Position numbers and translations under genes: made by a program. Shown piece by piece: positions 5,345-54,113 of a DNA stretch of 64,000 nt. This DNA is from Candidatus Terrybacteria bacterium RIFCSPHIGHO2_01_FULL_43_35. GTDB taxonomy: Bacteria > Patescibacteriota > Minisyncoccia > Terrybacterales > GWB1-40-14. Under the pieces are notes generated by a model, which worked only from the letters and a program-made list of their open reading frames with translations, was not told the DNA's origin and searched no databases. Each line of letters starts with the position of its first letter. Positions within the stretch are counted from its first letter, which is position 1. The stretch is from contig MHSR01000013.1 of the NCBI GenBank assembly GCA_001822815.1, forward strand, positions 18,808 to 82,807, given 5' to 3'.

Positions 5345-5425
5345 GCCGAAGTGGCGGAATGGCAGACGCGCACGACTCAAAATCGTGTGAGGAAACTCAT
5401 GAGGGTTCGACTCCCTCCTTCGGCA
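5345..5425 (+). tRNA. tRNA-Leu (anticodon CAA), long variable arm, no encoded CCA
   Basis: Manual cloverleaf: acceptor GCCGAAG/CTTCGGC, D-arm, anticodon stem CACGA/TCGTG with loop CTCAAAA, long variable arm, T-arm GAGGG-TTCGACT-CCCTC. Confidence 0.85.
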
Positions 5426-5480
5426 CAAACGCAAAATTTAGTGCTGGGGCGCGCACCGACTTCTAGCACCAGAATGAATT

Positions 5481-22561: not shown

Positions 22562-24262
22562 TTACGGCTGAACCTTGCCGCCTGAAGATGTATCGTCTGG
22601 AAGTTGCGTGGTTACCTCATCTACTTCAAATTCGCGCATTACACTCGTGAAAACATCCCGTCCGGTAACCTTGGCGCTCAAAACCAGCGGCACAAATTTA
22701 TCTATATCTTGAAAGCTGGGTATAAAACTTATCCTGAAGGAGAGTTCTCGTGGTTCACTTTTAATACCGATTCCCGCAGGCAGATCCCCGATGTTCCAGC
22801 GCAACTCGCGAGTGTTTTGATCCCAGATGATGGGTTCGTCTTCCGGGAAAAGTACGGCCACAAAATTTACTTCAGGAGCCAAAACTCCTCGCACGGTAAC
22901 ATTCTGCATGCCATTGGTGCCGCCGATAACATCCCAAACAACCGTATAGGTTGTGGTTTGTCCGACTCGCGGAGGCACGGGACCAGAATTTTGTCCGCCC
23001 GGAGCGTTGTTATACAGCACGCCCTGATTCAATATAAGCTTGCCGTTTATCCTGACCTCGTTGTTGGTGTCACCTAATTTTAATCCTCCGCTTTCGGCGT
23101 AAGAGCGGACGATAAACTTAGGGTTACGATCGTCTAAGGTGTTGAAGGGCGGGTTATTCAATATTCTACCTTGGAATATGAACTCTTTTTGCGCACCGGG
23201 ATTTATTGATCTCAAATCTAAAACCGTCGTTCCGTCAAAAATCCATTTTTCGCTGTCTTGCGATACCGATGTTTCTGTGGCGCGCAAACTGTTTATCTGA
23301 AAATATTTATCTGGTAAGAAGACGGTTAAAACCGTATTTTTAATAACTGTATTCGTGGTGTTGGTAATAAGCACCTTAAGATCAAAAGTCTCGCCAGGGT
23401 CAATTGCGGTGACTGCCGGATTGATAGCGCCCTGGAGGCGCTGGGATATTAAAAGCGATGAAATTGTCGGCCTTATTGTCTGGTTTTCTTCTTTGAAGGT
23501 TTGTATCAATCTTGAATGATCTTCACTTAATTGTCCCACCTTGAGTACGAAATCTCCGCCGGGCGCGCCGGGAGTAAATTTGCCCGTTATTGATATTTCT
23601 CCGGTGCTTACGGGATCAATAGTACCTAAATCCCAAAGACGGTAATTTTCGGAGGTTGTTTCTGGGGTACTGGAAACAAATTCAAACCCTTCTGGCTCAT
23701 CAAGCTGAAGGCCGATATTGGAGATAGGAATCTGCGCTTTGGATTCCCATGAAACTCTAAGGGTAAATTCTTTTCCTGGTGAAGGAACTTCGGGTATAGA
23801 AAGAGCTATATCAATCGGCAAAGACACGATTTTTATAGTTCTAGTTGCCTCTTTGCTGAATCTAAGCGACACAGCTTGCGTGCGGAAAGATAGTTCCGCT
23901 TTGGGCGTTATATCCCCACCGGGCAAAGTCGTGATCACCATACTAAAAGCAAAGGTTTTCTTTTCTCCAGGTGCCAATGCCGCAACACCGTCATTTTTTA
24001 CCCGTATGTTTGGGTCATCAGGGGCTTCGGTGCCGCTTGGATAAATAAAGGCCACGCGTACGTCTTGGAGCGCGGTGTCGGAGTTATTGATAACCACGGC
24101 ATAAATATCATGCTTCTCGCTGGAATCCACCGCCTGCTCGCTGACAATACTGAAGTCTATGCGATCTGTGCTAAAAAAAAGAAGCTGCGAGGCCGTAAAG
24201 GCGCCGCCGATAAACAATGAAACTATGCCTATAATTAATAAGGTTTTTGTCCGAGAGAACAT
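22562..24262 (-). CDS. Large secreted or cell-surface protein, hypothetical (signal peptide, beta-rich)
   Basis: N-terminal signal/anchor (MFSRTKTLLIIGIVSLFIGGAFTASQ). An alternative upstream start exists at 24289. Confidence 0.5.
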   Translation of the reverse strand: MFSRTKTLLIIGIVSLFIGGAFTASQLLFFSTDRIDFSIVSEQAVDSSEKHDIYAVVINNSDTALQDVRVAFIYPSGTEAPDDPNIRVKNDGVAALAPGEKKTFAFSMVITTLPGGDITPKAELSFRTQAVSLRFSKEATRTIKIVSLPIDIALSIPEVPSPGKEFTLRVSWESKAQIPISNIGLQLDEPEGFEFVSSTPETTSENYRLWDLGTIDPVSTGEISITGKFTPGAPGGDFVLKVGQLSEDHSRLIQTFKEENQTIRPTISSLLISQRLQGAINPAVTAIDPGETFDLKVLITNTTNTVIKNTVLTVFLPDKYFQINSLRATETSVSQDSEKWIFDGTTVLDLRSINPGAQKEFIFQGRILNNPPFNTLDDRNPKFIVRSYAESGGLKLGDTNNEVRINGKLILNQGVLYNNAPGGQNSGPVPPRVGQTTTYTVVWDVIGGTNGMQNVTVRGVLAPEVNFVAVLFPEDEPIIWDQNTRELRWNIGDLPAGIGIKSEPRELSFRISFIPSFQDIDKFVPLVLSAKVTGRDVFTSVMREFEVDEVTTQLPDDTSSGGKVQP

Positions 24263-24387
24263 GATGGAAGCTAAAAACGTAAAGTGCAAAACGAAAAATA
24301 ACTAAACGCGCGAAACGCTTTTGGCTATGCTTTAATTTTTTCGATATTCTTTTGCGCTTTTCGCTTTAAGCTTTACGCTATTGTAGA

Positions 24388-25149
24388 TTATACCACACGC
24401 TCTAAAAACCATGACACCGCAACTGGATTTGCTTCAACAAAGAAATCTTCTTTAAAAAGAAAGGTTATTAAGACTTTGTCCAAATGCTCGTAAACATGCT
24501 CCGGGATCTGGCCCGATATCCCTTCGTCCATAATGCGTTGAAGCGCGTATAGATCCTCTTTATCCAGTAAACATGAAGACGATTTCTCGCAGGAGCGACA
24601 TAAAATCTCGCCTGAAAAGTTAAAAACCGCACCGTCTTCAAATGATTGTTGGCACTGCGGGCATTTTTCAGATAAAACAAAGACCCCGGACATTTTAAGC
24701 ATTGACCAGAAAAACCTCTGCACGATTACCCAACATTTACGATCGCCTTGCCCGGCTTCAGTTCCAGAAAAAAACTGGGGCTGGGTGATCGCCCGAAAAG
24801 AAGCCAAAATGGTCAAAAACATGCGCTCGTCTTTTTCCGGCTGGACAACCAAAACGTCAATGATAAATGTTAAAAGTGTTGCGGCAAAAATATCTTTATA
24901 GCCAGACTCGCGCGTTATGAATGTCTCGATAGTTTTGGCGCCAGTAAGCAAAAGGTTGTTTTTGCCGCGCACAAAAGATAGTTCAACCAAAGAATAGGGC
25001 TGAAGGTCGGGGCGCAATTTCGCTTCCATCTTGCGTGCGCCTTTAGCCATAAAAGTCATTTTACCGAAAAGTTCAGTGTAGACGGTGGCCAAAATATCCG
25101 CTTCGCCGGATGTTTCGATTTTAATTATTATTGCGCGCGTTGAATCCAT
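24388..25149 (-). CDS. recO: DNA repair protein RecO
   Basis: N-terminal OB-fold-like region and a C-terminal CxxC...CxxC zinc finger (CPQCQQ...CRSC). Start taken at the internal Met (MDSTRAIIIKIE). Confidence 0.6.
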   Translation of the reverse strand: MDSTRAIIIKIETSGEADILATVYTELFGKMTFMAKGARKMEAKLRPDLQPYSLVELSFVRGKNNLLLTGAKTIETFITRESGYKDIFAATLLTFIIDVLVVQPEKDERMFLTILASFRAITQPQFFSGTEAGQGDRKCWVIVQRFFWSMLKMSGVFVLSEKCPQCQQSFEDGAVFNFSGEILCRSCEKSSSCLLDKEDLYALQRIMDEGISGQIPEHVYEHLDKVLITFLFKEDFFVEANPVAVSWFLERVV

Positions 25150-25468
25150 AAGAAAAGCGTAAAGTGTAAAACGAAAAGCGCAAAACAACAATGCAAAACT
25201 CAAAATAGATTAGTAAATCTACCGTTACCACTAATTTTCTTATATTTCTATACAAATTGAAAGGCCTCGCGTAGAAGAATTCTGTTTTGGTTGAGCGCTG
25301 TAATGGAAGCCGGTTAGCTGGCGGGCGAGTTCGTGAGCGTCATTAAGGCGAAGACCGAATTGGCCGGAACGGCTGTATAAATGGAGGGATCCCTTGCAGA
25401 CGCGAACGAATACGCCCGCCTGATAATTTATTTTCCTTAATACGTGAGCGTTAAGCGAAACCAAAATC

Positions 25469-28400
25469 TTATTTCGTCTTTCTAATCCCAATCCATATTT
25501 TACTGTCGCCAAGTGAAAACTCCCGTTCAATGATAAATGTTTCGTTCTTGCGCTTCTCCCCCGTCTCCACCCGTTTGGCATAAACATCTTCTTTTATTTC
25601 CTGCGCGCGCTCCATAATATCGCGTCCAAAGTTTTCACTGGCCCAAATGCGTAAAGTTATCCTCTCTTTTGGTTTCAAACCGGCATCTTTGCGAGTGTTT
25701 TGTATCTGCCGTACAAGCTCGCGCATGGCGCCAAGCAACATGAGGGTAGGCGTTATGTGTATATTCAGAGCCATACCTTGTTCGGTATCACGAAGCCATT
25801 CTTGCCCATCTGGCAAAGAAGAAAGTATAGCCACGCTGCCAACGTTCATTTCTTCACAAAGAACTCTAAAAAGACCCTTATCTAATTTTTCTTTATTGGC
25901 GACTTTGGCCGTAAGAACCAGGGACGAAAGCGGCTGGCGCACTTTATGTCCGCTTTGAGCCCTTAGTTTAAGCGCAATCTGAATTTTGGCGCGCAAAGCC
26001 TCCATACTTTTTTCAAGTTTGGAATTTTGGGTTTTTTTATTTATTTGAGGCATGCGCTCAAGATGCACCGAAGCCTTAAGCCCCAAGCCCAGCCATAACT
26101 GCTCGGCAACAAACGGAGCAAACGGGGCGGCCAGCAAAGCGGTTTGTTTCAAAACAAAACTAAGAACTTCTGTCACCTGGACAAGCTCTTTTTTATTTTT
26201 GGGATGCTGAAATCTTTCGCGCGAGCGTCTAATATACCAGTTGGACAGGTCATCAATCACAAAAGCGCTTAAAGCACGTGTGGCGGCGGTGATATCATAA
26301 TTATCCATGCGCTTAATAATCTGTTCGCTTGCGGTGGCAAGACGCGATAATATCCATTTATCAAGAATATCGGTTGACGCTGGCGCTTTCGTATTTTTTA
26401 GCGCGCTAGCGGCGTAAAGCTTAAAAAAGGATAGAGAATTCCAGAGCGTACCCAAAAATTTCTGCTGCGCGTCTTTAAGTTCTTCTTCGTTGAAGCGCTT
26501 AGTGTCTGACGGGTGATTCATGGTGTAGAAATACCAACGTACGGCATCGGCCCCGTAAAGATCGGTCATATCCCACGGGCTTATCGCATTGCCCAGAGAC
26601 TTGGACATTTTTTTGCCATTTTTATCTACCACGTGACCGGTCACAACAACATTCTTATACGGCGTGCTTTTGCCGAGCAAAACAGAAACAGCCATGAGGG
26701 TATAAAACCATCCGCGCGTTTGATCTACGGCCTCGCAGATGAAATCAGCCGGGAAAGAAAGAGCTTTTTTATTTCCGCTCTTCTCAACGCGGTTTTTATT
26801 TTCAAAAGGATAATGCCACTGGGCAAAAGGCATGGCACCGGAATCAAACCAGACATCAATTACTTCACTCACCCGTTTCATAGGATGCGCGCACTTTTTA
26901 CACGCAAAAGTCAGGTCATCAACAAAAGGACGGTGCAGATCCAAACGGCCAGTATCGTCTGAAGGCGGCATTGAAGAAAGGATTTTTTCTTCTTTAGCAA
27001 AATCGGGATATGTCAGTTTGGGCGTACCGGCTTTTTTTGTCTTGAGATACGGCTCAACATATTCTTTATCCTCCGCGCCAAGCAAAATACCCTTAAGCAG
27101 CAGTAAGGGATCGCCGTGCCCAACCAACACAATGGTTTTATCGTTATAGATTTTCTCGAGATTCTGTATAAAATAATACATGCGGTTTCTAAGATCGAAC
27201 CAATTTTCGCCATTTAATGGCTTTTTGTGCCAGCGTTCGCCTGGCTTGTGTTCCAGGAAATCGTGATATTCTTTTATCGGCATGCTGTTGAATGCTCCCA
27301 AATCAAACTCGCGCAGTTCTGTTTCTTTTTTGGGCTTGATACCGCACGCTTTCCCCATAATTTCCGCCGTATCATTTGCCCTTTGAAGTGGTGAGGTGAA
27401 AATAATATCTGGTTTGATCCGCGCAATTCTTTTTGCGGCAGCGCGAGCCTGTTTTATACCGCGAGCGGTCAATGGATTACGTTTGTTTTCGGGCCAAGAA
27501 GAAACCCAACCCTGTACATTAGCCCTGGCTTGGGCATGACGAACCAAAATATATTTATTTTTTGTCTGTGAACGGGACAAAAGCTCTTTTATTGAGCCGA
27601 TGACTTCAGTTTGACCACATTGTTCGCATTTCCAAACAGGCAGTGGTATGCCCCAGTAGCGCTCGCGCGATATTGCCCAATCCTTAACTTCGTTCAGCCA
27701 CTCTCCGAATCTACCTCTTTTTATGTGTTCCGGTACCCAATTTACTTTTTCATTAGCTTCGCGGAGCTGTTTGCGCAATGCCGACATGCGTATGAACCAA
27801 CTTTGGCGGGCGTAATAAAGTAGTGGAGTTTTGCATCGCCAACAGAAAGGATAATCGTGAGTATAAAGTTCTTCCTTTAAAATAAGGTTGCGCTGATGTA
27901 AATATGAATTTATCACTATTTCTGCTTCTTTTGATTTGACCGGCAAGCCCGCCAGACCAGCATTAACCGTGTTCAAAAATCTTCCGTCCTCGCCTACTGT
28001 ATGGACTTTCGGCAAGCCAATCTTTGAGCCCAAATTATAATCGTCCTCGCCATACATGACCGCGGTATGAACTACGCCGGTGCCGTCTTCAGTGGTCACG
28101 AAATCGGCGGCATAAACTTTATGACTTTTTTCGTTTTTGGTTTCTGGGATATCAAAAAGGGGTTCATATTCAAGCCCCACTAACCTTGAACCCTTAATTT
28201 CGGCTAAAATATTTAACGGCTCTTTAAATAAACGCGCTGCGGCATCTTTAGCCAAAATATAAACTTCACCGCTGCCAACCTGCGCTTGTACGTAATCTAT
28301 GTCGTTGTTTACAGCCAAAGCCACGTTACCCGGCAAGGTCCAAGGAGTTGTAGTCCAACTTAATATGTAAGTATGTTTTTTGTCTTTTATTCTAAATTTA

Positions 28401-28999
28401 ATATAAACCGAATTTTCGGTGACCGATTCATATCCTTGAGCAACTTCGTGCGAAGCCAAAGCCGTACCACAGCGCGTACAATAAGGCACGACCTTAAAAT
28501 CCTGCTCCAATAATTTTTTATTCCATATCTCTTTTATTATTCGCCAAACGCTTTCTATGTAAGAATTATCGTAAGTAACGTATGGATCTGTAAGATCCAA
28601 CCATAAGCCTATACGCTCGGTTAAGCGCTGCCATTCATCTTTATAGCGCCATACGGATGCTTTGGCTTTCGCGTTAAACTCGGCAATGCCATAATCTTCA
28701 ATTTCTTGCTTGGTTTTGAAGCCCAATTCTTTCTCAACTCCAATTTCAACCGGCAAGCCATGTGTATCCCAACCGGCTTTACGCTCAACCAAAAAACCTT
28801 GCATGGTTTTGTAACGCAAAAAAGCATCTTTGATTGCGCGAACCAAAACATGATGTATACCTGGCTGGCCGTTGGCTGTGGGCGGACCTTCAAAAAAAAC
28901 AAAACGCGGTGCGCGGGCGCGCCTCTTTAAACTTTTGGCAAAGATTTTATTATCTTCCCAATATCTAAGTATTTCTTTTTCTTGTTCGGCAAAGTTCAT
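25469..28999 (-). CDS. ileS: Isoleucyl-tRNA synthetase with an inserted histidine-phosphatase-like domain
   Basis: The N-terminal class I signature region reads ...GIHHV..., and WAISRERYWG, KMSKSLGN and the anticodon-binding domain are all present. Total length is 1176 aa, including an extra domain at aa 482-660. Confidence 0.9.
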   Translation of the reverse strand: MNFAEQEKEILRYWEDNKIFAKSLKRRARAPRFVFFEGPPTANGQPGIHHVLVRAIKDAFLRYKTMQGFLVERKAGWDTHGLPVEIGVEKELGFKTKQEIEDYGIAEFNAKAKASVWRYKDEWQRLTERIGLWLDLTDPYVTYDNSYIESVWRIIKEIWNKKLLEQDFKVVPYCTRCGTALASHEVAQGYESVTENSVYIKFRIKDKKHTYILSWTTTPWTLPGNVALAVNNDIDYVQAQVGSGEVYILAKDAAARLFKEPLNILAEIKGSRLVGLEYEPLFDIPETKNEKSHKVYAADFVTTEDGTGVVHTAVMYGEDDYNLGSKIGLPKVHTVGEDGRFLNTVNAGLAGLPVKSKEAEIVINSYLHQRNLILKEELYTHDYPFCWRCKTPLLYYARQSWFIRMSALRKQLREANEKVNWVPEHIKRGRFGEWLNEVKDWAISRERYWGIPLPVWKCEQCGQTEVIGSIKELLSRSQTKNKYILVRHAQARANVQGWVSSWPENKRNPLTARGIKQARAAAKRIARIKPDIIFTSPLQRANDTAEIMGKACGIKPKKETELREFDLGAFNSMPIKEYHDFLEHKPGERWHKKPLNGENWFDLRNRMYYFIQNLEKIYNDKTIVLVGHGDPLLLLKGILLGAEDKEYVEPYLKTKKAGTPKLTYPDFAKEEKILSSMPPSDDTGRLDLHRPFVDDLTFACKKCAHPMKRVSEVIDVWFDSGAMPFAQWHYPFENKNRVEKSGNKKALSFPADFICEAVDQTRGWFYTLMAVSVLLGKSTPYKNVVVTGHVVDKNGKKMSKSLGNAISPWDMTDLYGADAVRWYFYTMNHPSDTKRFNEEELKDAQQKFLGTLWNSLSFFKLYAASALKNTKAPASTDILDKWILSRLATASEQIIKRMDNYDITAATRALSAFVIDDLSNWYIRRSRERFQHPKNKKELVQVTEVLSFVLKQTALLAAPFAPFVAEQLWLGLGLKASVHLERMPQINKKTQNSKLEKSMEALRAKIQIALKLRAQSGHKVRQPLSSLVLTAKVANKEKLDKGLFRVLCEEMNVGSVAILSSLPDGQEWLRDTEQGMALNIHITPTLMLLGAMRELVRQIQNTRKDAGLKPKERITLRIWASENFGRDIMERAQEIKEDVYAKRVETGEKRKNETFIIEREFSLGDSKIWIGIRKTK

Positions 29000-29233: not shown

Positions 29234-29824
29234 TTAGTTTCTCCACCCGCTTTTTGGACGAGATTCAATGGTTATAAGATCATCTGGCGCCACAAGATAG
29301 TATGTGGAATAACGCTGAAGATTTGCATTGAAGCTGTATATCGAAACAGAAGTCATCTCTAAAACAGAATCGCTAAAAGAGGTGTTGGCCCAAATAGAAC
29401 GCGGTTGGTGGTGAGTGTAAAAAACTGTTTTGGTTCCGTCTTCATGGATCCAGGTTACGCGCCATTCAAAATCATTTGGATCGCTGGCATCGCCAGAAGC
29501 TGGCTGCTTATTGATCTCAACGCTGTGGGTGGGATCTACATTAATAGTAAGGGTATTGTAAATATTATTTGTAAGCACTACGCCGTTGGCTTCGCGCGCG
29601 TTGGCCAGAACAACTTGCGGGTCTCTACCCTGCACAAAAACCGGTTCGCTATCGGTATAGTAATCAAATGCCTGAACGTTGCCTTGATTGTAATAAACGT
29701 GCCAAGTATATTCTTGGGCGCTAGAATGCTGACCGTCACCTAACTCAATATCTCCTACGCCAGAGGCACATGAAGCCACCAGAAAAGTTAGCGGTATAAC
29801 TAACAAGGCCGCAATCCGTTTCAT
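29234..29824 (-). CDS. Lipoprotein, hypothetical
   Basis: Lipobox LVASC after a signal peptide (MKRIAALLVIPLTFLVASCASG). Confidence 0.55.
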   Translation of the reverse strand: MKRIAALLVIPLTFLVASCASGVGDIELGDGQHSSAQEYTWHVYYNQGNVQAFDYYTDSEPVFVQGRDPQVVLANAREANGVVLTNNIYNTLTINVDPTHSVEINKQPASGDASDPNDFEWRVTWIHEDGTKTVFYTHHQPRSIWANTSFSDSVLEMTSVSIYSFNANLQRYSTYYLVAPDDLITIESRPKSGWRN

Positions 29825-29826
29825 TA

Positions 29827-30081
29827 TTACCTTCCTCCTTGCGTTGCGTGCGCCAAATATCTAGGCGCGATTTCGTGGGCAAAAACGACTTCGGGCAATG
29901 CCCTATACTTCTTAATTATTTCTGCAATAAACGCGTCGGGTACAAGGCTTAGCAAATAAAGGTCAGTCGCAATGACAAATTCAAAGGTGGCACCTAAATT
30001 CTTATTAATATCGGTGATGCGATCTAAAGAAGCGGACCGGAGAAACTTAACGGCTATAAACTTATGAGCGCGCAAAGCCAT
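29827..30081 (-). CDS. Hypothetical small protein (84 aa)
   Basis: ORF sits 2 bp upstream of the lipoprotein gene. No motif recognised. Confidence 0.35.
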   Translation of the reverse strand: MALRAHKFIAVKFLRSASLDRITDINKNLGATFEFVIATDLYLLSLVPDAFIAEIIKKYRALPEVVFAHEIAPRYLAHATQGGR

Positions 30082-30256
30082 ACTCCTTAGCTCTTTGAAA
30101 CCATTGGATTATTGACAAAAAGCTTTAACTAAAATTTAACCCCGCTAGAAGTCGCTGTCAAATGTATAAAAAAATTGCCCAAATTTTTTATACCGAAGAC
30201 TTCTAAGGGGGTCAATGATTAAAAATGACGAGTATTTATTGATTAACAAAACTGCC

Positions 30257-31285
30257 TTATTTATTTTCGGTACCACCAGTATCGGCGGTTTCTTCGCCAA
30301 GCCGCCGGAAAGAACCTTTGCCAAAAATACTCTCTATTAGACGCGCCAACGGAATTAAATTGCCGCTGAAATTTGCTCGCGCAAATATATCAAAAACCTC
30401 TTGCCTATTCTCAAATCGGCCGTGACTTTTTTCTATAATTTCATCTATCAATCTCCAAAGTTTATCACGTTCATTCTTGCGCCCAACAAATACATCTCTT
30501 CCTTTAGTTTTCGGTGGAAATTCAGCAACTATAGTAGCGATGGTTTCTTTGTCTGGTTCTATTTTCTCAAAAATCGTGAGTATTTCTCTGGCAGAAGGTA
30601 TAGAATATACTTCTTCCATGGCTTCCCGCTCATTCTGCTCTTGTGTTGGATTAAAGCGGTGAACAATATGCAATAATGATTCTTTCAATTTGTTTGTGGC
30701 TTCTATCTCTTCACTATATAATGGATTATTTTGCATTTCCTCGTCGTAAAATTTCTTGGCCAATATTTCGGCAATAGCCTCTTCTATATCTGAAAAGTGT
30801 TTTATGCGACTCTCTCGATCTGATACGATAATGCCGCTTCTATACATACGGTGCTTCTTTTGCGCATCTATTTGCGCAGCTTTGTAGGACAATTGGTGGA
30901 ACATTTCATGCACAAGCGTTGTGGCTACATCTACATTCGACTCCAGATCGCGATCCACTACTATCTCTTGTGCCAAAGACCTGTGTATACCGCCGTAGAA
31001 TTCCCCGTTGGTGAGTTCGGATGCTCCTCCTGATCTTACAAAATGTATTTTATGTGGCGGTATTGGCTTAGGGTCTCCGCCGTAAAACTTTGCCATTCTA
31101 TATGCAAATTCTTCTGCGTTTTGAATAATCGTCTTGTCCTGTTCAGTAAGCCGTATTTCGTACTTGGCAATATCTTGATCGCCAATTTGCAGAAGTTCCT
31201 CTTGTAATTCGTGCTTAAGTCTAGCTCGCTCTCCCTCTGTTCCGCCCACCACTCTTTCAAATTGTGTTTCAAAATTTTCTAGCAT
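30257..31285 (-). CDS. Hypothetical cytoplasmic protein with an HExxH zinc-metallopeptidase-like motif
   Basis: A single HEMFH motif in a 342-aa acidic protein. No signal peptide. Confidence 0.45.
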   Translation of the reverse strand: MLENFETQFERVVGGTEGERARLKHELQEELLQIGDQDIAKYEIRLTEQDKTIIQNAEEFAYRMAKFYGGDPKPIPPHKIHFVRSGGASELTNGEFYGGIHRSLAQEIVVDRDLESNVDVATTLVHEMFHQLSYKAAQIDAQKKHRMYRSGIIVSDRESRIKHFSDIEEAIAEILAKKFYDEEMQNNPLYSEEIEATNKLKESLLHIVHRFNPTQEQNEREAMEEVYSIPSAREILTIFEKIEPDKETIATIVAEFPPKTKGRDVFVGRKNERDKLWRLIDEIIEKSHGRFENRQEVFDIFARANFSGNLIPLARLIESIFGKGSFRRLGEETADTGGTENK

Positions 31286-37552: not shown

Positions 37553-37935
37553 GGGGATGCCGGGCTTCGAAAAGGAAAAGTGTAGCGCGCGCAGGACGAG
37601 GCCGATCAACAACCTCGAAAAAAGTTGATCACTTACAAGTGCAAACTTGTTCGCAAAAGTGCAGAACGCTTTCCGCGTTCCAGCATTTGCTCTTGCTTAA
37701 ATTAGCTTGAGCCATCCGGCCCTGATGCTCGATAAGGAAACGCCGGGTGCCATACATCGAGCTTGACTAGCATAAGGACCTCGCTTGCGCTACGCGACTC
37801 AAACAGGGGTAGGAATATCTGAAATTCTGCCGTTCTTTGACCGGATATTCTGACAAAACATTACAGAATGGCTAATCCTGTAGAAGCGTGCCGCATAATT
37901 TTTCTTTGACGTGGGTTCAACTCCCACCATCTCCA
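37553..37935 (+). ncRNA. ssrA: tmRNA (SsrA)
   Basis: 5' GGGGATGCCGGGCTTCGA... pairs with 3' ...GACGTGGGTTCAACTCCCACCATCTCCA (tRNA-like domain). An internal tag frame at 37640-37699 ends ...AFALA-TAA. Located immediately after smpB. Confidence 0.8.
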
Positions 37936-38026
37936 CAAACCATGCCGACAATTTATAAATAGTTTTAACTATCTGCAAAAGTTTAATTATTATCAGCGCC
38001 GTCCGCAGTTTCAACGAGGACCGCGC

Positions 38027-54020: not shown

Positions 54021-54040
54021 AAATTTGTATTACCTGTGCG

Positions 54041-54113
54041 TGTCCTCGAGAGGAATCGAACCCCCAGTCTCCTCCTCCGGAGGGAGGCGTTTTATCCATT
54101 AAACTACGAGGAC
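54041..54113 (-). tRNA. tRNA-Arg (anticodon CCG), no encoded CCA
   Basis: Manual cloverleaf on the minus strand: acceptor GTCCTCG/CGAGGAC, D-stem GTTT/AAAC, anticodon stem CCTCC/GGAGG with loop CTCCGGA, T-loop TTCGATT. Confidence 0.8.

Follow-up and report, generated by a model that had tools for sequence, protein, structure and literature searches.

Why does an isoleucyl-tRNA synthetase (IleRS) carry a phosphatase within its own zinc knuckle? Aminoacyl-tRNA synthetases (aaRSs) are among the most conserved enzymes, and accessory domains in them usually point to further functions, editing, tRNA binding and signalling among them. The ileS gene that raises this question lies in a 64,000-nucleotide stretch of contig MHSR01000013.1 from Candidatus Terrybacteria bacterium RIFCSPHIGHO2_01_FULL_43_35, referred to here as the window, with coordinates counted from its first letter and features on the minus strand unless marked (+). 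The gene (25469..28999), identified with TIGR00392 and Pfam, is one uninterrupted open reading frame (ORF) of 1176 aa, insert included, and encodes a type 2 IleRS of the GXHH subtype. A preliminary description of the window had read the insert as a SixA/PGAM-type histidine phosphatase inside the catalytic core, forming an architecture not described before. Our analysis indicates that a whole class of ultra-small bacteria keeps a phosphatase with an intact catalytic set inside IleRS or translationally coupled to it, and that a second lineage does so independently with valyl-tRNA synthetase (ValRS).

The boundaries of the insert follow from alignment to the closest solved IleRS (8c8w), in which query residues 4-475 match chain residues 11-476 and query residues 685-1054 match 485-845. 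Between these blocks, 209 residues (aa 476-684; 26948..27574) comprising a histidine-phosphatase domain and a return linker of about 40 aa take the place of an 8-residue loop in the connective-peptide (CP) subdomain CP3, located between C458xxC461 and C700xxC703. The Pfam family His_Phos_1 (PF00300) covers the core of the insert (aa 484-647; 27059..27550) with an E-value of 1.6e-33 in the whole protein and 1e-34 on the excised segment. Its score of 116-120 bits against a gathering cut-off of 21.7, over profile positions 2-166 of 194, places the insert in branch 1 of the histidine phosphatase superfamily. Across the 1176-aa ORF, Pfam also finds tRNA-synt_1 (PF00133), split around the insert, Anticodon_1 (aa 880-1025) and DUF5915. 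The strings quoted in the preliminary description (WKCEQCGQ, FACKKCAHP, YILVRHAQARANVQGW, LQRANDTAEI, IVLVGHGDPL, WAISRERYWG, DVWFDSG and KMSKSLGN) all occur in this one ORF. Its central claim, an in-frame insertion of a phosphatase-superfamily domain between the CxxC pairs rather than a terminal fusion, frameshift or chimera, is borne out by the split Pfam match, the alignment to 8c8w, the homologues and the structure model, while its interval of 27020..27560 took in most of the Pfam core and left out the return linker. The placement inside the catalytic core does not hold. CP3 is a hypervariable appendage of the Rossmann fold whose topology differs among IleRSs and which bears a zinc motif in Thermus thermophilus IleRS (PMC7191050), so the insert sits outside the catalytic core proper.

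To which kind of histidine phosphatase does the insert belong? An AlphaFold2 model of the full-length protein, built with 120 homologues, has a mean predicted local distance difference test score (pLDDT) of 93.1 and a predicted template-modelling score (pTM) of 0.87, and superposes on the IleRS2 structure 8c8v with a template-modelling (TM) score of 0.82 normalised to the target. The insert in this model reaches a pLDDT of about 91-98 except in the linker near residues 650-660. Modeled alone (pLDDT 89.1, pTM 0.87), it takes up the alpha/beta fold of the dPGM/PhoE type. A Foldseek search with the insert model returns the metal-independent phosphoserine phosphatase PspA (4ij6) first, with an E-value of 2.4e-14 and a TM of 0.69-0.71, followed by the mycobacterial glucosyl-3-phosphoglycerate phosphatase GpgP, the histidine phosphatase HFP, the alpha-ribazole phosphatase CobC, and PhoE. 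Matches to phosphatases, 4ij6, 4qih, 6nru and 1h2e among them, have E-values of 1e-11 to 1e-14 and a TM of 0.65-0.76, with true mutases ranking lower, and a PDB sequence search gives the same ranking. The SixA profile (TIGR00249) scores 30.1 bits against a cut-off of 74.5 and matches only residues 29-103 of the excised segment. Neither PspA (NF045917; 59-62 bits against 350) nor CobC (TIGR03162; 67-71 against 162.9) reaches its cut-off, and a subfamily-specific SSWPE motif follows the RHG motif. The insert is, by sequence, a subfamily of branch 1 outside all named NCBIfam equivalogs. Among characterized proteins, both sequence and fold bring it closest to the small-molecule phosphatases PspA, GpgP, CobC and PhoE rather than to SixA or true mutases. 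Of the assignment to a SixA/PGAM type, the superfamily stands, the SixA likeness falls away and the mutase identity becomes very improbable.

We then asked how well the catalytic residues are conserved among the 120 best full-length homologues (45-69% identity, 1127-1373 aa), every one of which combines PF00133 with PF00300. The RHG-type motif is formed by R487, H488 and A489 (27533..27541; YILVRHA), with H488 as the predicted phospho-accepting histidine; R487 and H488 are kept in 120/120, while 107 homologues have G in the third position, 10 have A, two have C and one has S. Also invariant are the second phosphate-binding arginine, R540 (27380..27382; 120/120), the second catalytic histidine, H628 in VGHGD (27116..27118; 120/120), and E598 (120/120). 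The predicted general acid, E564 (27308..27310), is E in 112 homologues and D in eight, so that second arginine, second histidine and acidic proton donor of the phosphate pocket are all present. Insert length varies from 198 to 228 aa, and mean identity to the window sequence is 35% for the insert vs 57% for the IleRS body. Because R487, H488, R540, E598 and H628 are invariant despite this low identity, catalysis has probably been retained. Such strict conservation would be expected of a working enzyme domain and argues for retained catalysis as far as sequence can tell.

The host enzyme appears equally intact. The ileS profile TIGR00392 matches in two stretches, one on either side of the insert, and its 901 bits exceed the cut-off of 621.4. 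The N-terminal part (aa 1-475; 27575..28999), aligned to 8c8w residues 11-476, contains the first half of the Rossmann fold, the CP core, the CP1 editing domain, CP2, the CP2-3 linker and the first half of the CP3 zinc knuckle with its first CxxC pair (C458 and C461; 27617..27628). Beyond the insert lie the second half of the knuckle (LDLHRPFVDD ... C700xxC703 ... MKRVSE; 26864..26947), which aligns to 8c8w from residue 485, and the C-terminal part (25469..26863), with the second half of the Rossmann fold (DVWFDSG), the KMSKS loop (aa 797-801; 26597..26611) and the anticodon-binding and C-terminal domains. Class I signatures, CP1 editing domain and anticodon-binding domain are thus all present. 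K797 and K800 are kept in 120/120 homologues, the editing motifs WTTTPWTLPGN and GTGVVHTA are conserved, and the zinc cysteines are retained in 120 (C458), 111 (C461), 120 (C700) and 118 (C703) of the 120. The class I HIGH signature has the noncanonical GXHH form, G47-I48-H49-H50 (28850..28861), with H49 kept in 119/120 and H50 in 120/120. This form, a swap of the first and third HXGH positions, has been tied to mupirocin hyper-resistance in IleRS2 (PMC10485003). At the level of sequence, the signature together with the closest solved structures, which are Priestia megaterium IleRS2 entries, assigns the protein to the GXHH IleRS2 subtype; MupA and MupB identity is not supported by NF000257 and NF000258, at 774-786 bits against a cut-off of 1900. 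Judging by its intact motifs, the ileS product would be a complete, editing-competent type 2 IleRS that aminoacylates tRNA-Ile.

How widespread is the arrangement? An identical protein (100%; P0121, a Candidatus Terrybacteria metagenome-assembled genome (MAG)) is found on 10 contigs drawn from NCBI, JGI, ENA, Logan and UniRef. Source names among the homologues include Jorgensen-, Yanofsky-, Azam-, Wildermuth- and Pacebacteria as well as Minisyncoccia, although the taxon labels of many MAG records are unreliable and give no basis for inferring distribution. Two narrow peptide patterns from the insert, derived from a 5-sequence subset and therefore biased toward one motif variant, find a relative in at least 319 species-representative genomes. 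An exhaustive search of representatives with the insert alone returns 719 proteins at E <= 1e-10, both IleRS-sized and free-standing at about 190 aa. Of the best 80 species-representative loci, 68 have the domain within a single IleRS ORF. The insertion point is identical in all lineages of the IleRS clade, after GSxxEL and before DLHRP; the junctions recur in a single-cell genome too, and a complete chromosome was seen for the state in which the phosphatase is a neighboring gene. The architecture is the norm for a large part of the Parcubacteria/Paceibacteria, and its distribution is old as well as wide. Three checks proposed in the preliminary description, a His_Phos profile search, a structure prediction and a survey of related genomes, turned out in favor of the insertion. 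Several contigs with Parcubacteria-type loci (L004, L010, L067 and others; also P0004) are labelled Saccharibacteria, Humimicrobiaceae, Binatia or Sedimentisphaerales, which are probably default labels or binning errors. Split IleRS genes were considered for proteins of 660-760 aa that start or end at the phosphatase and were rejected, most of these being contig-truncated, with V or internal-M starts.

At the remaining 12 of the 80 loci, a member of the same phosphatase subfamily is encoded separately, as a protein of 187-213 aa. In 10 of them its gene is immediately upstream of an insert-less ileS, which when complete encodes 931-965 aa. The distances from phosphatase stop to ileS start at these 10 loci are -4, -4, -1, 1, 4, 4, 6, 32, 38 and 138 nt, and since seven fall between -4 and +6 nt, with stop and start codons often overlapping, the two genes would often be translationally coupled. 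At one such locus (L026) the order by Pfam is argS, His_Phos_1, ileS, a small ORF and recO. Of 48 insert-bearing loci, 39 have argS upstream and on the same strand, mostly abutting ileS, and we found no phosphatase remnant in their argS-ileS gaps; the phosphatase thus lies either between argS and ileS or inside ileS. Downstream, recO follows on the same strand at 44 insert-bearing and seven adjacent-state loci, as it does in the window, directly after ileS (24388..25203; Pfam RecO_N and RecO_C). Unlike most related loci, the window does not have argS directly upstream of ileS, the nearest ArgRS-like match being about 6.3 kb off on the same strand. The upstream region (29234..31285) holds two ORFs of 196 and 342 aa with no Pfam match, and a 575-aa DUF11-repeat protein is encoded downstream of recO (22562..24289).

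To see how the two states relate, we masked the insert and built a distance-based neighbor-joining tree of the IleRS body with 100 bootstraps. One clade of 15 members (83% support) contains all seven insert-less IleRSs, its other eight members being insert-bearing. Within it, an insert-less protein (L074) is placed in an insert-bearing group and an insert-bearing protein (L049) in an insert-less group, each with 100% support, and parsimony therefore needs several state changes. Neighbor-joining trees of the phosphatase domain (190 columns) are poorly resolved, and only well-supported nodes of the IleRS-body tree were relied upon. As far as these sequences go, the locus has switched between the inserted and the adjacent state several times. 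A comparison of an adjacent-state locus (L023) with an inserted one (L014) gives identities of 65% for ArgRS, 75% for RecO and 77% for the phosphatase vs 45-53% for the IleRS bodies, and GXHH and HXGH subtypes are each found in both states. These figures suggest that ileS was replaced by a different IleRS2 subtype, through allele replacement or recombination, with the phosphatase always kept at the locus.

Additional copies are found in both synthetases. IleRSs of the PPFATGLPHYGH subtype (P0305, P0357, P0336 and P0361) can hold two intact His_Phos_1 copies. One lies in CP3, and the other occupies either a loop where the anticodon-binding domain begins or the second half of CP3. A ValRS (P0276) has four. 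Searching with this protein, about 70 of the 120 best ValRS matches carry PF00300, with source names of Gracilibacteria and Peregrinibacteria. Motif mapping at the CP3-equivalent site finds one copy in 52 proteins, two in seven and three in one, and a few have copies upstream of CP3. The arginine and histidine of the motif are kept in 82/82 of the ValRS domains, and some copies are without the equivalent of H628 or E564. By sequence, the ValRS inserts look like a separate acquisition.

What, then, is the phosphatase doing in IleRS? The explanation that we prefer, to which we give an even chance, is that the ileS product is a bifunctional protein, in which IleRS is joined to a phosphatase that acts autonomously on small molecules or nucleotides and whose gene moved out of the argS-ileS gap into a permissive loop. 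The insert would be a histidine phosphatase of the PhoE/PspA/CobC kind at the tip loop of the CP3 zinc knuckle, hydrolyzing phosphomonoesters through a phospho-His488 intermediate, with R487, R540 and H628 holding the phosphate and E564 predicted to act as the acid. Its most likely substrate class would be a small phosphorylated metabolite or a nucleotide. The domain may act on its own, without having to be placed precisely with respect to the aminoacylation site, because sister lineages encode it as a free protein, its copy number ranges from one to four, and its sites vary among CP3, positions upstream of CP3 and the anticodon-domain loop. As to origin, a translationally coupled operon would already have had the phosphatase gene between argS and ileS, from where it moved into the permissive ileS loop. 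In a streamlined genome, this move would tie its expression one to one to that of an essential gene. If the domain is indeed a metabolic enzyme, the locus is a clean natural case of a neighboring gene having become an inserted domain by relocation, with inserted and adjacent sister lineages directly comparable.

Several observations weigh against an autonomous metabolic phosphatase. The window protein itself reads RHA, not RHG. A different His_Phos_1 subfamily was independently captured at the equivalent site of ValRS, and at the ileS locus the domain persists across both IleRS2 signature subtypes and apparent ileS replacement; neutral hitch-hiking accounts poorly for this capture and persistence, which speak for a functional link to class Ia synthetases. 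The position of the insert is also suggestive. In yeast IleRS the CP2-3 linker, ARDWNVSRNRYWG, lines part of the pocket in which reveromycin A mimics the tRNA CCA end (PMC7955072). The corresponding linker reads WAISRERYWG in the window IleRS and CP3 starts right after it, so a substrate at the tRNA end is possible.

The capture, the persistence and the position feed the best-surviving alternative, which we think rather unlikely, namely that the phosphatase is coupled to translation and acts on a blocked tRNA acceptor end (3'-phosphate, 2',3'-cyclic phosphate or 3'-pyrophosphate) or on a phosphorylated synthetase, as a built-in repair or antitoxin activity. RelA-SpoT-homologue toxins add a 3'-pyrophosphate to the tRNA acceptor end, which would supply one such block. 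Recurrent and independent capture at one and the same CP3 site in two class Ia editing synthetases, retention at the ileS locus in either state and across IleRS subtypes, proximity to the CCA pocket and translational coupling of the free-standing gene to ileS all speak for it, whereas the variable copy number and sites and the existence of a free state argue against any mechanism that depends on geometry. The nearest characterized relatives all act on small molecules, and the charge of the domain gives no hint of RNA binding: the mean isoelectric point (pI) is 8.7 for the IleRS insert and IleRS body alike, while the ValRS inserts are mildly acidic (pI 6.3). No PADLOC defense family was matched, and none of four insert-less ValRS loci has a His_Phos neighbor, so that the adjacent-gene pattern was not replicated there. 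An analogy with leucyl-tRNA synthetase (LeuRS), by which CP3 would correspond to the leucine-specific domain, with the insert touching the tRNA 3' end, was rejected: that domain is inserted just before KMSKS, at a different site. Should the phosphatase act on the tRNA end or the synthetase, translational quality control or toxin resistance would gain a new layer. A stronger form, which we regard as unlikely, would make the histidine phosphatases of Patescibacteria dedicated IleRS and ValRS partners that clear a phosphate-type block, be it a toxin-installed 3'-(pyro)phosphate or a nuclease-left 3'- or 2',3'-cyclic phosphate, from the tRNA end or the synthetase; if true, this would be an aaRS accessory function of a kind not described before.

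Could the insert instead supply the glycolytic phosphoglycerate mutase (PGM) step and merely be housed in IleRS? Its best NCBIfam match is indeed NF038349 (dPGM_arch), a short, archaeal-type dPGM, at 102-106 bits. This is below half of the cut-off of 225, and the other dPGM equivalogs fail as well, with TIGR01258 at 32 against 81.7. The segment following the acid Glu, RLREFDLGAF (consensus RLRExxxGxFNG), is PhoE-like, and we take it to differ from the ERHYG-type mutase signature. With phosphatases as the closest solved structures and true mutases further down, we consider a mutase very improbable. A non-catalytic module, that is, a pseudo-enzyme that expands CP3 structurally or senses a phosphate-bearing ligand to regulate IleRS, seems very unlikely too. 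The RHA motif of the window protein fits such a module, CP3 is structurally plastic among IleRSs (PMC7191050), and the phosphate-binding Arg and His would stay conserved even in a pure binder. Against it, the nucleophilic His, both Arg, the second His and the acidic Glu/Asp are kept in 120/120 homologues despite 35% identity, and a free-standing form of the same protein exists. In pseudo-enzymes it is normally the nucleophile or the acid that is lost. RHA, RHS and RHC together make up just 13/120, and RHA, which the preliminary description had taken as a possible sign of a non-catalytic domain, is a minority variant (10/120) that offers weak grounds for inactivity with the other catalytic residues intact. 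Finally, an artefact of assembly or binning, in which a chimeric contig joined a phosphatase gene to ileS, has practically no chance, the mis-assembly that the preliminary description had allowed for being refuted by the continuous reading frame, by a G+C content of 0.43-0.45 over the insert that equals that of its flanks, by the identical protein on 10 contigs from independent sources and by the same junctions in hundreds of divergent genomes.

Automatic annotation as 'class I tRNA ligase family protein' masks, in hundreds of genomes, an enzyme that would be bifunctional. Whichever reading applies, testing the system is easy, as it takes one soluble protein and one point mutant. Elsewhere in the window we found a tmRNA gene at 37553..37938 (+) (Rfam, 122 bits; predicted tag peptide ANLFAKVQNAFRVPAFALA), tRNA-Leu(CAA) at 5345..5426 (+) and tRNA-Arg(CCG) at 54040..54113.

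How does this enzyme compare with known systems? We found no published description of a phosphatase within IleRS in the full-text literature searched, which leaves out most subscription journals. The claim of an undescribed architecture holds to that extent, yet the architecture is not peculiar to this genome, and its sequences are plentiful in public databases under generic names. In comparison with the GXHH IleRS2 of P. megaterium (8c8u, 8c8v and 8c8w) and with T. thermophilus IleRS (1ile), the window protein has the same full-length layout of Rossmann fold, CP1, CP2, zinc-knuckle CP3, KMSKS, anticodon-binding and C-terminal domains. It matches 8c8w at 812 bits and shares the G-I-H-H signature of the hyper-resistant IleRS2 clade. 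It differs in having a 209-aa enzymatic domain in place of the 8-residue CP3 tip loop, for which we found no counterpart with a folded enzyme domain among solved and published IleRSs.

With the broad-specificity phosphatases of branch 1, namely PspA/iPSP1 (4ij5), GpgP Rv2419c (4pz9), the riboflavin-pathway HFP (9mmh), CobC (6e4b and 6nru) and PhoE (1h2e), the insert shares the fold, at a Foldseek TM of 0.65-0.72, and the catalytic set of RHG-type motif, second Arg, acid Glu and second His. Its identity to them is only 24-30%, and it is set apart by the SSWPE motif, the return linker of about 40 aa and its embedding in, or encoding beside, a synthetase. Bifunctional RNase H/acid phosphatase (NF005567, PRK07238 type) likewise joins a CobC/PhoE-like His_Phos_1 domain to a nucleic-acid enzyme, and its phosphatase half is matched by the insert at 65-69 bits, far under the cut-off of 326. 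That protein is an end-to-end fusion with its RNase H partner, in contrast to the internal insert of the window.

The ValRSs with His_Phos_1 (P0397-P0514) are the nearest parallel in host and site. Like IleRS, ValRS is a class Ia editing enzyme, and its domains occupy the same CP3-equivalent position, between WCISRQ and DTWFSS. They belong to a different subfamily, with 24% identity to the window insert and no SSWPE motif, and two or three tandem copies are frequent. A curated IleRS family with an extra enzymatic domain also exists already in NCBIfam, NF040702 (ileS_w_GNAT, 'isoleucine--tRNA ligase, N-acetyltransferase domain-containing'). Our literature search found no paper on this family, and a candidate precedent for GNAT in IleRS proved to concern separate proteins. 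Its passenger is a GNAT domain instead of a phosphatase, the window protein scores 312 against its cut-off of 1999, and from the matched profile coordinates its extra positions appear to lie in the CP1 region, not CP3. The family nonetheless shows that IleRS is able to host enzymatic passengers.

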